From Escherichia coli (GTDB taxonomy: Bacteria; Pseudomonadota; Gammaproteobacteria; Enterobacterales; Enterobacteriaceae): a DNA stretch of 64,000 nucleotides. How positions within the stretch are numbered: position 1 is the first letter of the stretch; each line of letters begins with the position of its first letter. The position numbers and the translations under genes were made by a program. Positions 7,003-18,721 of this stretch are shown here, one piece after another. The notes under the pieces were generated by a model. The model did not search any database and was not told where the DNA came from. It was given only the letters and a program-made list of their open reading frames with translations. The stretch is from the NCBI RefSeq assembly GCF_003790525.1, contig NZ_CP033636.1; one strand, written 5' to 3'.

Positions 7003-8397
7003 ATGATGCAACTGACGCTCCAGATAGTCATCACCGATGAATCAGGCTCCAGTCGAACGGAGGAACTGATGACAATCCAGAAATCAGGGGAGACCCGGAA
7101 CGACATCGGATTATCGGTGTCAGAATCCAAGCTGTTGCTGAATACGGTCCAGCAGTCGGTGGTCCAGCTGCAGGCAGACGAATATACTCAACACCATATC
7201 CGGTGCCCTCACTGCCTTGCTGCGCGCAGAATCAAAGGCAAACAGAAAATACGGTACCGGACGCTGTTTGGCGTTATTCCGGTATCCGGGCTTCGGGTGT
7301 ACCGGTGCCGTTGTGAAGAGAGTGATACAAAGACAGTCAGTTTGCTCAGCGACTGGGCCGGCGATTATTCTCACCCGGCACTGAAATATATTGAAACCCG
7401 CTGGGCCTCGATGATCTCCTATGAAATGACGACTCGTCTGCTGAAAGATATTCTGCCGGTGGGCCACAGCCTGAATGCCTCAACGGTGAGGAATCATTTA
7501 TGCCAGGTGGCGCAGCGTCTTGACGCTGAGGCTGAAGCTCATTCAGGTTTTCTTTCCGGCTGCCCCCGCGACTGGGGGAACCTGCCCAGGCCAGGAAAAC
7601 CGCTTGTGGTGGGTATAGATGGTGGTTATGTTCGCGATCGGGATGACAAAAAGCGTAATTTTGAAATTATTGCCGGGAAGTCTTTTTCCGTTGGTGCGCC
7701 TGCTGACACCCGCCGCTTCGGTTTTGTTCAGAAGGATGACTGTCATCCGGAACGCAGGCTCATGACCCACCTTTCAGCGCAGGGAATGCAGGCCAACCAG
7801 CAGATATTTTTTCTGTCCGACGGCGCGGATAATCTCAGGGACCTCCAGTTCGGTATGTACCCTGAGTCAACGCATGTGCTGGACTGGTTTCATATCACCA
7901 TGAGGCTGAAGGTGCTCATGCAATATGCCCGGGGACTGCTGGTATCAGATCCAGAGGCGGGGAGTAAAGTTCTGGCACTGCTGGAAAGCATTAAACGATA
8001 TCTCTGGCATGGCAATGTTGTCGCTGCGCTGGAACATATTGATAATTGCGTTATGTATTGCGATGACCCTGAACTCAGCTATCCTAGCCTGAAATCCCTG
8101 CAAAAACATCTGGATGAAATGTATACCTACATCCGGAATAATAAGATGATGATCCCAAACTACGGCGAAATGCGTCGGTACGGAGAGCCGGTATCAACCG
8201 CGTTTGTGGAATCCACGATCAATGAAGTGATCGCCAGACGAATGGCCAAAAAGCAGCAGATGCAGTGGAGCAGAAAAGGGGCTCATTATTTGTTACAGAC
8301 CCGGACCGCCGTTTTGAATAACGAACTGCAGGATAAATTTGTCTGCTGGTATCCGGGTTTTCAAAGTGACGGGAAGGGACCAGCGATGGCAGCATAG
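7003..8397 (+). CDS. tnp: ISKra4-family transposase (ISKpn19-like), the usual neighbour of qnrS1
   Basis: 464-aa translation recalled as ISKpn19/ISKra4-family transposase; sits upstream of qnrS1. Confidence 0.65.
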   Translation: MMQLTLQIVITDESGSSRTEELMTIQKSGETRNDIGLSVSESKLLLNTVQQSVVQLQADEYTQHHIRCPHCLAARRIKGKQKIRYRTLFGVIPVSGLRVYRCRCEESDTKTVSLLSDWAGDYSHPALKYIETRWASMISYEMTTRLLKDILPVGHSLNASTVRNHLCQVAQRLDAEAEAHSGFLSGCPRDWGNLPRPGKPLVVGIDGGYVRDRDDKKRNFEIIAGKSFSVGAPADTRRFGFVQKDDCHPERRLMTHLSAQGMQANQQIFFLSDGADNLRDLQFGMYPESTHVLDWFHITMRLKVLMQYARGLLVSDPEAGSKVLALLESIKRYLWHGNVVAALEHIDNCVMYCDDPELSYPSLKSLQKHLDEMYTYIRNNKMMIPNYGEMRRYGEPVSTAFVESTINEVIARRMAKKQQMQWSRKGAHYLLQTRTAVLNNELQDKFVCWYPGFQSDGKGPAMAA

Positions 8398-8420: not shown

Positions 8421-8858
8421 ATGCTCTCGGTCGTATGGAAGCTGGACCGCCTCGGTCGTGATCTTCGTCATCTCATTAATACAGTGCACGACCTGACCGC
8501 GAGGGGGACCGGTCTGAAAGTGCTGACCGGTCACGGGGCGACTATCGACACAACAACGGCCGCTGGCAAGCTTGTCTTCGGTATCTTTGCCGCACTGGCG
8601 GAGTTTGAGCGCGAACTGATTGCTGAAAGAACGACTGCAGGTCTGGCATCAGCAAGAGCCCGTGGGCGGAACGGCGGCCGACCTTATAAAATGACGCCAG
8701 TCAAACTGCGACTGGCAATGGCATCAATGGGACAATCAGAAACAAAGGTCAGTACGCTATGCCAGGAACTTGGGATAACCCGGCAAACTTTGTACAGGCA
8801 TATTTCCCCTGTTGGTCAACTGCGGGCGGACGGGATCAAGCTGCTCAACCGTGGATAA
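8421..8858 (+). pseudogene. serine recombinase/resolvase fragment lacking the N-terminal catalytic region
   Basis: Translation has the resolvase central and C-terminal HTH portions but no catalytic serine region; starts right after the ISKra4-family transposase. Confidence 0.6.
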
Positions 8859-9176
8859 TTTGAACGGACGGAAAAATCTGGGGTTCCGGCGTAGTACCCC
8901 TATCACCTCCACATTTTTGCAACAGTGCCTTATAAATGGCAGCCTTATGTTTACTTGCCAAGATGGGCTACCATATGATGTTTTATACTGAGCAATATTA
9001 ATATTATCTTTAATGGAAAAATTAAGCCCACTAAGTGACCCACTGCTATATGGCTCTATTGTGAAGACGCCTGAGGGTAAAAATTTATACATGGTTGTCC
9101 CTATGTCTATTATTGCAAGGTTGACAATATTATTCGTTTTATAAATTTGAGCGTTTAAAATCACACATCAAAGCAA

Positions 9177-9833
9177 TTAGTCAGGATAAACAACAATACC
9201 CAGTGCTTCGAGAATCAGTTCTTGCTGCCAGGCTGCAATTTTGATACCTGATGTATCGACTTTGCGGGGATCTAAACCGTCGAGTTCGGCGTGGCATAAA
9301 TTGGCACCCTGTAGGCTAAATTGCCCCCAGACATCTTCGGAAAAAACACCTCGACTTAAGTCTGACTCTTTCAGTGATGCACCCGCTAGGTTCGTTCCTA
9401 TCCAGCGATTTTCAAACAACTCACATTTTTCTAAACAAACCCTCTCCATATTGGCATAGGAAAGATTACATCCAGAAATAAATGCTGAGCAAAAGTACAT
9501 ACGATTACTCACTTGATGGGCAAAGTTTGTTCGGGAAAAGTTGGCACCTTTTAAATCACACGCACGGAACTCTATACCGTAGCAATTGGCATTACTGAAG
9601 TTTGCCATCGCAAGTTGGCATTGTTGGAAACTTGCATCACGAAGATCTGCGACATCAAAGTGGCAGCCTTCGATATCACCCTGTTCAATGAACTTGCAGT
9701 TGACGAATGTCGTATCACGCAAGTTAGCACGTCGAAAGTCGCTGCGAATGAATGTGCAAGCGGTGAAGGTGAGATCACTTAAGTCTTTATGTGAAAAGTT
9801 GTGGTGCCGATATGTATGATTGTAGGTTTCCAT
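9177..9833 (-). CDS. qnrS1: pentapeptide-repeat quinolone-resistance protein QnrS1
   Basis: 218-aa translation (METYNHTYRHHNFSHKDLSDLTFTACTF...ALGIVVYPD) matches QnrS1 from recall; tandem pentapeptide repeats visible. Confidence 0.9.
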   Translation of the reverse strand: METYNHTYRHHNFSHKDLSDLTFTACTFIRSDFRRANLRDTTFVNCKFIEQGDIEGCHFDVADLRDASFQQCQLAMANFSNANCYGIEFRACDLKGANFSRTNFAHQVSNRMYFCSAFISGCNLSYANMERVCLEKCELFENRWIGTNLAGASLKESDLSRGVFSEDVWGQFSLQGANLCHAELDGLDPRKVDTSGIKIAAWQQELILEALGIVVYPD

Positions 9834-10136
9834 GAGTACTCCTTGTTGAAAGGAGGGCTAGACTACCATTATACATATGCCAAGACATTAAAATAAAAGC
9901 CTGTTACATCAACACATTACAACCCCTCAATTTACCTGTTTTAAGTGGTCAAATTGGCGCGTAGAGCGCCTATCGCTCTTGCATTGGCACGCGGCCCTGT
10001 TGAAAAAAGTTATTCGCTTTAGATAGGGTTAGGAGAGCCGTGCTTCGCCGGTAAAAAATCGGACTATCCGACGCAGGGCGGACTCATCGGCGGAGAAGCA
10101 AACTTTGACTATATCTCCCTACACTTGGAAGAGGGC

Positions 10137-10847
10137 TAGACTGGCCCCATAGATCACCAGACACTTCGACTCTCTTAAAATAAGAGGTAGTCTTGGAACT
10201 ATGTTTAATACCAGTCAGAACGATAAGATGGTTGAAGTGTTATCAGGACCTGAGCGGCGTCGGCGTCGTACACCGCAGGAAAAAATTGCCATTATTCAGC
10301 AGACTATGGAGCCCGGTATGACCGTGTCTCATGTCGCGCGCCTGCATGGCATCAATGCAAACCAGATATTCAAATGGCGCAAGCAATATTAAGACGGTTC
10401 ACTGACGGCTGTTGCATCGGGCGAGGAAGTGGTGCCGGCCTCCGAACTCGCTGCCGCCAATAAGCAAATTCGCGAACTCCAGCGCCTTCTGGGCAAAAAG
10501 ACGATGGAAGCCGAGATACTCAAAGAGGCCGTGGAGTTCGGCCGGGCAAAAAAATGGATTGCGCATGCGCCCTCGTTGCCTGGGAACGACGAATAAGCGA
10601 CGTTTGCAGAAGTCTTAGCGTGTCGCGTGCGCAGTTGAGCATTCGGGTTCACCGGCCATCTGACTGACAGGATCGCAGACGGCAGCCCCGTTCTGACGAT
10701 ACCACCGTATTGTCCCGGATAAACATGGCGGTGGCTGACCTGCCGACGTATGGTTATCGCCGTGTGTGGGCGCTGCTGCGACGGGAGTCGGAGCGGGACG
10801 GCCTGCCTGTGGTTAATGCAAAGCGGGTGTATCGCATTATGAGAACG
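10137..10847 (+). mobile_element. IS3-family (IS2-like) remnant: orfA with an in-frame nonsense codon, orfB cut by IS26
   Basis: Left end TAGACTGGCCCC resembles IS2 IRL; the orfA frame 10201-10596 carries TAA at 10390-10392 where IS2 InsC continues QEGSL; sequence stops at IS26 (10848). Confidence 0.6.
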
Positions 10848-11667
10848 GGCACTGTTGCAAATAGTCGGTGGTGATAAACTTATCATCCCCTTTTGCTGAT
10901 GGAGCTGCACATGAACCCATTCAAAGGCCGGCATTTTCAGCGTGACATCATTCTGTGGGCCGTACGCTGGTACTGCAAATACGGCATCAGTTACCGTGAG
11001 CTGCAGGAGATGCTGGCTGAACGCGGAGTGAATGTCGATCACTCCACGATTTACCGCTGGGTTCAGCGTTATGCGCCTGAAATGGAAAAACGGCTGCGCT
11101 GGTACTGGCGTAACCCTTCCGATCTTTGCCCGTGGCACATGGATGAAACCTACGTGAAGGTCAATGGCCGCTGGGCGTATCTGTACCGGGCCGTCGACAG
11201 CCGGGGCCGCACTGTCGATTTTTATCTCTCCTCCCGTCGTAACAGCAAAGCTGCATACCGGTTTCTGGGTAAAATCCTCAACAACGTGAAGAAGTGGCAG
11301 ATCCCGCGATTCATCAACACGGATAAAGCGCCCGCCTATGGTCGCGCGCTTGCTCTGCTCAAACGCGAAGGCCGGTGCCCGTCTGACGTTGAACACCGAC
11401 AGATTAAGTACCGGAACAACATGATTGAATGCGATCATGGCAAACTGAAACGGATAATCGGCGCCACGCTGGGATTTAAATCCATGAAGACGGCTTACGC
11501 CACCATCAAAGGTATTGAGGTGATGCGTGCACTACGCAAAGGCCAGGCCTCAGCATTTTATTATGGTGATCCCCTGGGCGAAATGCGCCTGGTAAGCAGA
11601 GTTTTTGAAATGTAAGGCCTTTGAATAAGACAAAAGGCTGCCTCATCGCTAACTTTGCAACAGTGCC
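10848..11667 (+). mobile_element. IS26 copy 1 (820 bp, 14-bp terminal IRs GGCACTGTTGCAAA)
   Basis: Both IRs read directly at 10848-10861 and 11654-11667; length exactly 820 bp; no flanking 8-bp direct repeat. Confidence 0.95.
10911..11615 (+). CDS. tnp26: IS26 transposase Tnp26 (234 aa), carries V171M relative to copies 2 and 3
   Basis: Translation [21 protein letters not shown]...; codon AAC ATG ATT gives N-M-I where the other copies have N-V-I. Confidence 0.95.
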
Positions 11668-12673
11668 CACTAGTGAGGGGCGGCAGCGCATCAAGCGGTG
11701 AGCGCACTCCGGCACCGCCAACTTTCAGCACATGCGTGTAAATCATCGTCGTAGAGACGTCGGAATGGCCGAGCAGATCCTGCACGGTTCGAATGTCGTA
11801 ACCGCTGCGGAGCAAGGCCGTCGCGAACGAGTGGCGGAGGGTGTGCGGTGTGGCGGGCTTCGTGATGCCTGCTTGTTCTACGGCACGTTTGAAGGCGCGC
11901 TGAAAGGTCTGGTCATACATGTGATGGCGACGCACGACACCGCTCCGTGGATCGGTCGAATGCGTGTGCTGCGCAAAAACCCAGAACCACGGCCAGGAAT
12001 GCCCGGCGCGCGGATACTTCCGCTCAAGGGCGTCGGGAAGCGCAACGCCGCTGCGGCCCTCGGCCTGGTCCTTCAGCCACCATGCCCGTGCACGCGACAG
12101 CTGCTCGCGCAGGCTGGGTGCCAAGCTCTCGGGTAACATCAAGGCCCGATCCTTGGAGCCCTTGCCCTCCCGCACGATGATCGTGCCGTGATCGAAATCC
12201 AGATCCTTGACCCGCAGTTGCAAACCCTCACTGATCCGCATGCCCGTTCCATACAGAAGCTGGGCGAACAAACGATGCTCGCCTTCCAGAAAACCGAGGA
12301 TGCGAACCACTTCATCCGGGGTCAGCACCACCGGCAAGCGCCGCGACGGCCGAGGTCTTCCGATCTCCTGAAGCCAGGGCAGATCCGTGCACAGCACCTT
12401 GCCGTAGAAGAACAGCAAGGCCGCCAATGCCTGACGATGCGTGGAGACCGAAACCTTGCGCTCGTTCGCCAGCCAGGACAGAAATGCCTCGACTTCGCTG
12501 CTGCCCAAGGTTGCCGGGTGACGCACACCGTGGAAACGGATGAAGGCACGAACCCAGTGGACATAAGCCTGTTCGGTTCGTAAGCTGTAATGCAAGTAGC
12601 GTATGCGCTCACGCAACTGGTCCAGAACCTTGACCGAACGCAGCGGTGGTAACGGCGCAGTGGCGGTTTTCAT
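11668..12673 (-). pseudogene. intI1: class 1 integron integrase IntI1, 3' end disrupted by IS26 (nearly full length)
   Basis: Translation [20 protein letters not shown]... matches IntI1; about 335 native codons, then the reading frame runs into IS26. Confidence 0.9.
12558..12586 (+). promoter_or_regulatory. integron cassette promoter Pc, weak variant (TGGACA-N17-TAAGCT)
   Basis: Hexamers and 17-bp spacer read directly inside the intI1 coding region, oriented toward the cassettes. Confidence 0.75.
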
Positions 12674-12747
12674 GGCTTGTTATGACTGTTTTTTTGTACA
12701 GTCTATGCCTCGGGCATCCAAGCAGCAAGCGCGTTACGCCGTGGGTC

Positions 12748-12812
12748 GATGTTTGATGTTATGGAGCAGCAACGATGTTACGCAGCAGGGCAGTCGCCCT
12801 AAAACAAAGTTA
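12748..12812 (+). other. attI1 recombination site of the class 1 integron
   Basis: 5'-conserved-segment sequence GTTACGCAGCAGGGCAGTCGCCCTAAAACAAAGTTA read directly, ending at the first cassette junction. Confidence 0.75.
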
Positions 12813-12845
12813 TGCAGCCAAATCCCAACAATTAAGGGTCTTAAA

Positions 12846-13298
12846 ATGGTAAAAGATTGGATTCCCATCTCTCATGATAATTACAAGCAGGTGCAAGGAC
12901 CGTTCTATCATGGAACCAAAGCCAATTTGGCGATTGGTGACTTGCTAACCACAGGGTTCATCTCTCATTTCGAGGACGGTCGTATTCTTAAGCACATCTA
13001 CTTTTCAGCCTTGATGGAGCCAGCAGTTTGGGGAGCTGAACTTGCTATGTCACTGTCTGGCCTCGAGGGTCGCGGCTACATATACATAGTTGAGCCAACA
13101 GGACCGTTCGAAGACGATCCGAATCTTACGAACAAAAAATTTCCCGGTAATCCAACACAGTCCTATAGAACCTGCGAACCCTTGAGAATTGTTGGCGTTG
13201 TTGAAGACTGGGAGGGGCATCCTGTTGAATTAATAAGGGGAATGTTGGATTCGTTAGAGGACTTAAAGCGCCGTGGTTTACACGTCATTGAAGACTAG
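12846..13298 (+). CDS. arr-2: rifampin ADP-ribosyltransferase Arr (arr-2/arr-3 type; allele not resolved)
   Basis: 150-aa translation MVKDWIPISHDNYKQVQGPFYHGTK... matches Arr-2/3 from recall; first cassette after attI1. Confidence 0.85.
   Translation: MVKDWIPISHDNYKQVQGPFYHGTKANLAIGDLLTTGFISHFEDGRILKHIYFSALMEPAVWGAELAMSLSGLEGRGYIYIVEPTGPFEDDPNLTNKKFPGNPTQSYRTCEPLRIVGVVEDWEGHPVELIRGMLDSLEDLKRRGLHVIED

Positions 13299-17482: not shown

Positions 17483-18721
<1,239 letters not shown>

Follow-up and report, generated by a model that had tools for sequence, protein, structure and literature searches.

A 711-bp ISEcl2 remnant beside qnrS1 in Escherichia coli, with two premature stops and an IS26 truncation

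The segment at positions 10137–10847 of the 64,000-nt stretch of Escherichia coli DNA analysed here (the window) corresponds to the ΔISEcl2 already familiar from the qnrS1 platform, here in a configuration with IS26 that is likewise known, and is in that sense an ordinary molecular fossil. We hold it to be nearly certain that it is a non-functional ISEcl2 relic, a marker of history only, and that the element was dead before IS26 reached it. The 711-bp remnant retains a single inverted repeat, lacks the catalytic domain and is interrupted by two stop codons, so that it can neither produce a transposase and transpose nor be moved in trans. An initial annotation had described an IS2-like remnant, doubly inactivated by a nonsense codon in orfA and by IS26. 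Its coordinates are borne out, and the IS2 TnpA and TnpB profiles align, the more exact name being ISEcl2; of the double inactivation, both the TAA and the IS26 truncation stand, but a further stop, the TGA at 10665–10667, had been missed. The features on which the argument turns are as follows.

9177–9833, minus strand: qnrS1 (ORF; 218 aa, pentapeptide-repeat quinolone-resistance protein), divergent from ISEcl2
9834–10136: spacer from the qnrS1 start codon to the left inverted repeat (IRL) of ISEcl2, exactly 303 bp
10137–10847, plus strand: ΔISEcl2 (first 711 bp; IS3 family, IS2 group), without catalytic core and without right inverted repeat (IRR)
10137–10176, plus strand: IRL, about 40 bp, TAGACTGGCCCCATAGATCACCAGACACTTCGACTCTCTTA
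10201–10596, plus strand: orfA frame (131 codons in intact relatives), ATG at 10201, end TAA at 10594–10596, broken at codon 64
10390–10392, plus strand: premature stop TAA at orfA codon 64; ancestral GAA (Glu), G>T at 10390
10548–10554, plus strand: A7 slippery run, read as A AAA AAA in frame with orfA; conserved in all relatives and presumed to be the programmed −1 frameshift site
10554–10847, plus strand: 5′ part of orfB, 98 of 292 codons, −1 frame, from the ATG at 10554; HTH_21 region only, rve/DDE core missing
10617, plus strand: sub-lineage SNP (orfB Gly>Ser), A in the window against G in pK18An, S56 plasmid A and all relatives
10665–10667, plus strand: second premature stop, TGA at orfB codon 38; ancestral TGG (Trp), G>A at 10667
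10848–11667, plus strand: IS26 copy 1 (820 bp), 14-bp inverted repeat GGCACTGTTGCAAA from 10848; truncates ISEcl2 and the 3′ end of intI1

Identity and setting of the remnant

The left end of the element is preserved: the remnant begins at 10137 with TAGACTGGCCCC..., an IS2-type left inverted repeat (TAGACTGGCCCCATAGATCACCAGAC...), and this IRL, whose length was set at the point where the left and right ends lose their resemblance, matches imperfectly the reverse complement of the right end in full-length copies (TGGATTTGACCCTATATATCCAGACG...CTCTCTTA). It is the only terminal repeat in the window, the IRR being present in pK18An and in the 1333-bp relatives described below, and a search of all 64,000 nt found the rest of ISEcl2 (nt 712–1282, including the IRR) nowhere else in the window. 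The PGAP/RefSeq label on the remnant is [quoted passage not shown].

The window carries, in this order, an ISKpn19-type transposase gene (7003–8397), a truncated resolvase gene (8421–8858), qnrS1, ΔISEcl2, IS26 and a truncated intI1. QnrS1 (WP_001516695.1) is annotated at the same relative position at loci L001, L002, L004, L005 and L012. The name ISEcl2 comes from later papers, which give it to the IS lying 303 bp upstream of qnrS1 (PMC5027574, PMC5034289, PMC9044524), and from the matching 303-bp geometry, a distance likewise found in PMC9044524. The ΔISEcl2-qnrS1-ΔtnpR-ISKpn19 platform is already in the literature (PMC5027574, PMC5034289, PMC9044524), and the IS2-like copy beside qnrS1 has been termed defective ("defective versions of IS2-like ... 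insertion sequences"; PMC8953408). The ΔISEcl2 of that platform, part of "Tn6292", is 99.7–100% identical to the window over the 711 bp in more than 1,800 plasmids, and its orientation, its 303-bp distance and its neighbours (ISKpn19 transposase, truncated resolvase, qnrS1 and IS26) are those of the window. Nothing substantial sets the two apart: the window has the sub-lineage SNP (A at 10617), and of the several truncation points known it has the one made by IS26 at nt 711. The full 711 bp of the window recur at 100% identity in other plasmids.

The family assignment draws on profile matches. With codon 64 repaired, OrfA carries the Pfam domain HTH_Tnp_1 (PF01527; E=3.2e-20), which is DNA-binding and of the repressor type, and its residues 10–131 cover positions 1–121 of the 121 in the NCBIfam profile "IS2 repressor TnpA" with 211.9 bits; in an intact relative, OrfB matches the "IS2 transposase TnpB" profile over its full length with 481.5 bits. 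Both scores fall under the curated IS2 cut-offs of NCBIfam (229 bits for TnpA and 597 bits for TnpB), so that the element belongs to the IS2 group of the IS3 family without being IS2 itself. The IS2 of Escherichia coli is alike in its family organisation and in the end-to-end matches to the TnpA and TnpB profiles, and it presumably shares with the remnant the atypical left end that starts with TA rather than TG; with the profile scores too low, however, "IS2-like" is right and "IS2" is wrong. In the OrfB of the remnant, Pfam recognises HTH_21 alone; in the intact relative, rve (E=3.7e-18) and rve_3 are found in addition. The remnant thus descends from the IS2 group of the IS3 family without being a functional member of it. 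The most distant E. coli chromosomal matches are about 73% identical and cover part of orfA only. One E. coli match (H66) was rejected as an IS2 reference, being a partial, unnamed transposase pseudogene, and the NCBIfam profiles were used in its place.

Four full-length relatives served for comparison, with identities given over the 711 bp of the remnant:

Lonsdalea quercina (L007): 1333 bp, 96.1%
Salmonella Weltevreden plasmid (L003): 1333 bp, 93.9%
Entomohabitans teleogrylli (L010): 1333 bp, 87%
Serratia quinivorans (L008): 1333 bp, 86%

These 1333-bp IS2-group elements share with the window the IRL, a 131-codon orfA, the A7 slippery site and an overlapping orfB. They differ in having GAA and TGG where the window has stops, in retaining both inverted repeats and in the absence of a 51-bp deletion that is taken up below, and none of them lies beside qnrS1. 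The OrfB of 292 aa is uninterrupted in three of the four. Environmental Enterobacterales associated with plants and insects harbour the nearest intact relatives. The closest full-length relative of all, in Lonsdalea quercina (NZ_JIBQ01000008.1, 2008–3340), has an intact orfA and an orfB stop of its own (...TDNGSA*RAHE...), and with this separate stop that copy may be inactive too. A 41-nt degenerate pattern spanning codon 64, intended to detect an un-mutated ISEcl2 ancestor, had no match of any kind in 100,044 species-representative genomes; a 28-nt pattern of the frameshift site, searched in species-representative genomes, recovered five relatives at 83–96% identity and no copy at 99% or above.

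A possible residual role beside qnrS1

Among the alternatives to a dead relic, the one that survives best, and to which we nonetheless give very little chance, holds that the remnant has been kept as something that still works: either a 63-aa, HTH-only OrfA regulator is made from a promoter in the IRL, or the IRL itself is regulatory sequence for qnrS1. Such a role would fit the presence of the left end in nearly every qnrS1 context and an erosion that always proceeds from the right, and the 63-aa product does retain most of the HTH region (Pfam HTH_23, residues 25–68). However, remnants down to 35–72 nt stand beside qnrS1, so the peptide is not needed, and a qnrS1 region in which ΔISEcl2 is replaced by ΔISKpn19 has been published (PMC5034289). 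Between the IS and the gene, a consensus scan of 9780–10260 detected nothing resembling a promoter on the strand of qnrS1; on the plus strand it gave one weak site, at chance level. Rfam, run at permissive thresholds over 8800–10900, gave no match. IS3-family OrfA needs its C-terminal coiled-coil part for multimerisation, and the 63-aa fragment is without it, which also speaks against a working regulator. The constancy of the left end is explained by linkage to a selected gene, as longer deletions would reach the upstream region of qnrS1. A residual role of the remnant, be it as a 63-aa HTH peptide or as regulatory sequence of qnrS1, is unlikely.

The remaining point in favour of such a role is a 19-nt similarity: the IRL junction resembles sequence lying shortly before the qnrS1 start codon. 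The two members of the pair are TTGAAAGGAGGGCTAGACT at 9846–9864, which extends from 12 to 30 nt upstream of the qnrS1 ATG, and TTGGAAGAGGGCTAGACT at 10125–10142, which consists of flank and the first 6 nt of the IRL. Their local alignment score of 26 was reached by one of 2000 shuffles and by none of 377 other segments of the window. The similarity could be due to chance, to IR-directed targeting, to a small duplication or to a shared binding site. SOS-independent quinolone induction has been reported for qnrS1, and a part in qnrS1 regulation of this or another kind for the invariant left portion of ISEcl2, whether as IRL-proximal sequence or through the 63-aa OrfA fragment, seems to us a shade less probable even than the residual role as a whole.

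The premature stops and their fixation

The reading of the remnant as a dead relic starts from the TAA at 10390–10392, which had been called a nonsense codon from the outset. Codon 64 is GAA in all four full-length relatives, each of which has an OrfA of 131 aa, and orfB codon 38 is TGG in all four; the two ancestral codons are thus reconstructions from relatives at 86–96% identity. Had the TAA been the natural end of orfA in a different IS3-family member, the initial claim would have fallen, and it is true that at least 1,000 public contigs carry a protein call for the 63-aa ORF (10201–10392), which bears the UniRef name "IS2 repressor TnpA". Nevertheless, we consider a natural terminus extremely improbable: the frame continues to code after the TAA, with residues 65–124 identical to those of the intact relatives; Glu64 (...KQYEDGSL...) and a 131-aa OrfA are found in every full-length relative and in every 131-aa OrfA inspected in the cluster that the 63-aa ORF forms at 90% identity; the repaired protein fills the whole IS2 TnpA profile, 121 of 121 positions; and the A7 run lies 156 nt downstream of the TAA, where a frameshift site would be out of the reach of translation. 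That the A7 run is the site of the shift from orfA to orfB, and that frameshifting takes place there, we presume from established IS3-family biology.

In the orfA-only region, the remnant differs from the Lonsdalea copy by 11 synonymous and 2 non-synonymous changes, and the stop is one of the latter two. With the changes mostly synonymous, most of the divergence arose under purifying selection, and the inactivating hits in ISEcl2 are comparatively recent. Of orfB, 98 codons are retained counting from its ATG and 84 counting from the end of the orfA frame; the earlier estimate that IS26 copy 1 cuts orfB after about 85 codons was accurate on the latter count.

In PLSDB the two stops are fixed, practically all qnrS1-linked copies having them. 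The 711 bp of the window match 1,811 PLSDB plasmid records and 769 E. coli RefSeq records at 99% identity or above. A 71-nt probe across the TAA is matched exactly by 1,635 of 1,638 PLSDB records, 1,555 of which cover it in full, the partially covering ones being copies cut just before the stop; the same nonsense codon thus recurs in other qnrS1 contexts, as had been suggested for checking. The corresponding probe across the TGA is matched exactly by 1,540 of 1,544 records, with 1,537 covering it in full. No copy at 99% or above with the ancestral GAA or TGG was seen among the PLSDB matches. With 711 bp at least 99% identical in more than 1,800 plasmids and hardly any further decay, the pattern fits a recent global spread of the qnrS1 module. 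That the stops are sequencing or assembly errors in the window is virtually inconceivable, as the same bases recur in independent plasmid records, about 1,550 for the TAA and about 1,535 for the TGA, spread over more than 20 genera, and in the 769 E. coli records.

The stops are also found outside the reach of IS26. The longest qnrS1-linked form, in the Klebsiella pneumoniae plasmid pK18An (L005), is 1282 bp long and has both inverted repeats, and the window is 99.7% identical to its nt 1–711; a second copy, in plasmid A of E. coli S56 (L001), is truncated by Tn3 and has no contact with IS26. Both of these copies carry both stops. As they were never touched by IS26, ISEcl2 was dead before the IS26 cut, and the earlier view of the remnant as an older layer beneath the IS26 events is upheld. 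Both copies have, in addition, a 51-bp in-frame deletion that takes out 17 codons of the DDE core and removes ESLEWLTDNGSAYRAHETR; the deleted ...WLTDNGS... stretch we take, from established knowledge of the IS3 family, to contain the second catalytic Asp motif.

These longer copies bear on another alternative, in which read-through or recoding of the stops keeps the 1282-bp copies active and the segment in the window was recently cut from a live element. The 1282-bp form does keep both inverted repeats, and the substitutions relative to other elements are mostly synonymous; still, we see practically no prospect for this reading. It would require two different stops (TAA and TGA) in two frames to be overcome, and the 51-bp deletion has cost the element the conserved DDE-core segment ...LEWLTDNGSAYRAHE.... 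The distribution, too, is that of a passenger and not of a transposing IS: the median number of places per E. coli genome with ISEcl2 is one, and each of the seven copies inspected adjoins qnrS1. The target-site duplication of IS2 is 5 bp, and the 1282-bp copy in pK18An lies between AGGGC and CTGTA without a target duplication; as the flanks differ, the original insertion site has not been preserved.

The IS26 junction and a proposed order of events

The two ends of the remnant behave differently. The left junction, the IRL at 303 bp from qnrS1, is constant, whereas the right end of ISEcl2 varies: the full 1282 bp, a cut at about nt 1108 at a Tn3 inverted repeat, the cut at nt 711 at IS26, further ends at nt 578 and, again at IS26, at nt 250, and stubs of 35–149 nt were all seen. 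The remnant can therefore be used as a typing marker, its right truncation point separating lineages of the qnrS1 module. A 71-nt sequence spanning the junction of ISEcl2 nt 711 with IS26 is found in 181 PLSDB plasmids, 177 of them with an exact match (E. coli 126, Salmonella 38); the junction has thus been inherited and is not a new event in the window. Plasmid pEC6622-1 has the same arrangement of ISEcl2, IS26 and intI1.

IS26 copy 1 is not flanked by an 8-bp target duplication (TGAGAACG on the left and CACTAGTG on the right), which fits a deletion or cointegrate event, mediated by IS26 and uniting two regions that had been apart, and not a simple insertion; the partner 8-mers, direct or reverse-complemented, were not found at the other IS26 copies or the IS1006 copy of the window. 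The three IS26 copies (10848–11667, 17483–18302 and 29503–30322) are not identical, the second differing from copy 1 by 1 nt and the one at 29503 by 4 nt, and a matching pair of 8-bp flanks was found at none of them. The transposase of copy 1 is the variant WP_086525284.1 and not the common WP_001067855/858. On the far side of this IS26, the intI1 ORF (11561–12673, minus strand) has lost its 3′ end to copy 1 and reads on into IS26, giving 370 aa; a rifampicin ADP-ribosyltransferase gene follows at about 12846–13298, within an ORF at 12603–13298, and PGAP annotates arr-2 at the matching position of pEC6622-1.

The lesions and their fixation were observed, as were the differing truncation points and the IS26 junction that other plasmids share; from these, an order of events can be reconstructed. 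ISEcl2 would first have become linked to qnrS1, its left end 303 bp upstream and the element pointing away from the gene. The ancestor of the sampled qnrS1-linked copies would then have gained the Glu64>stop change in orfA, the Trp38>stop change in orfB and the 51-bp deletion. The resulting dead element of 1282 bp may have spread with qnrS1 in the ΔISEcl2-qnrS1-ΔtnpR-ISKpn19 platform through many genera, while its right side was probably eroded by different mobile elements, lineage by lineage. In the lineage of the window, an IS26 event would have taken away all of the element past nt 711 and fused what was left to a class 1 integron.

It has often been suggested that ISEcl2 mobilised qnrS1. 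Every qnrS1-linked copy examined is defective, the 1282-bp form with its two ends among them, and ISEcl2 could thus have mobilised the gene only before the lesions arose or with a helper element.

The erosion of the remnant is continuing in the E. coli plasmid p2017-19-1CC_2 (L013), where an extra IS26 at 2048–2867 lies within the 711-bp remnant, flanked by an 8-bp duplication, GGCGCAAG, of ISEcl2 nt 240–247; qnrS1 itself is truncated in this plasmid.

Other traces of mobile elements lie on the opposite side of qnrS1 in the window. At 8901–8929 on the minus strand, 24 of 29 positions match the left end of IS26 (GGCACTGTTGCAAAAATGTGGAGGTGATA), with a perfect 14-bp IS26 inverted repeat and no IS body. 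The 38 nt at 8863–8900, which start with GGGG and follow directly after the truncated resolvase gene, look like a terminal repeat of the Tn3 family, and a partner for this stretch was not found in the window. The 67-nt block formed by the two (8863–8929) is identical in all five qnrS1 loci fetched, so that the qnrS1 segment appears to be bounded by an old IS6-family end on one side and by the ISEcl2 IRL on the other. Farther along the window, at 23548–24366, lies an 819-bp IS6-family element that has the 14-bp terminal repeats of IS26 and is 75% identical to it; it is IS1006, matching at 100% records annotated as "IS6-like element IS1006", with Acinetobacter plasmids as its most frequent carriers (414 of 940 matching records).
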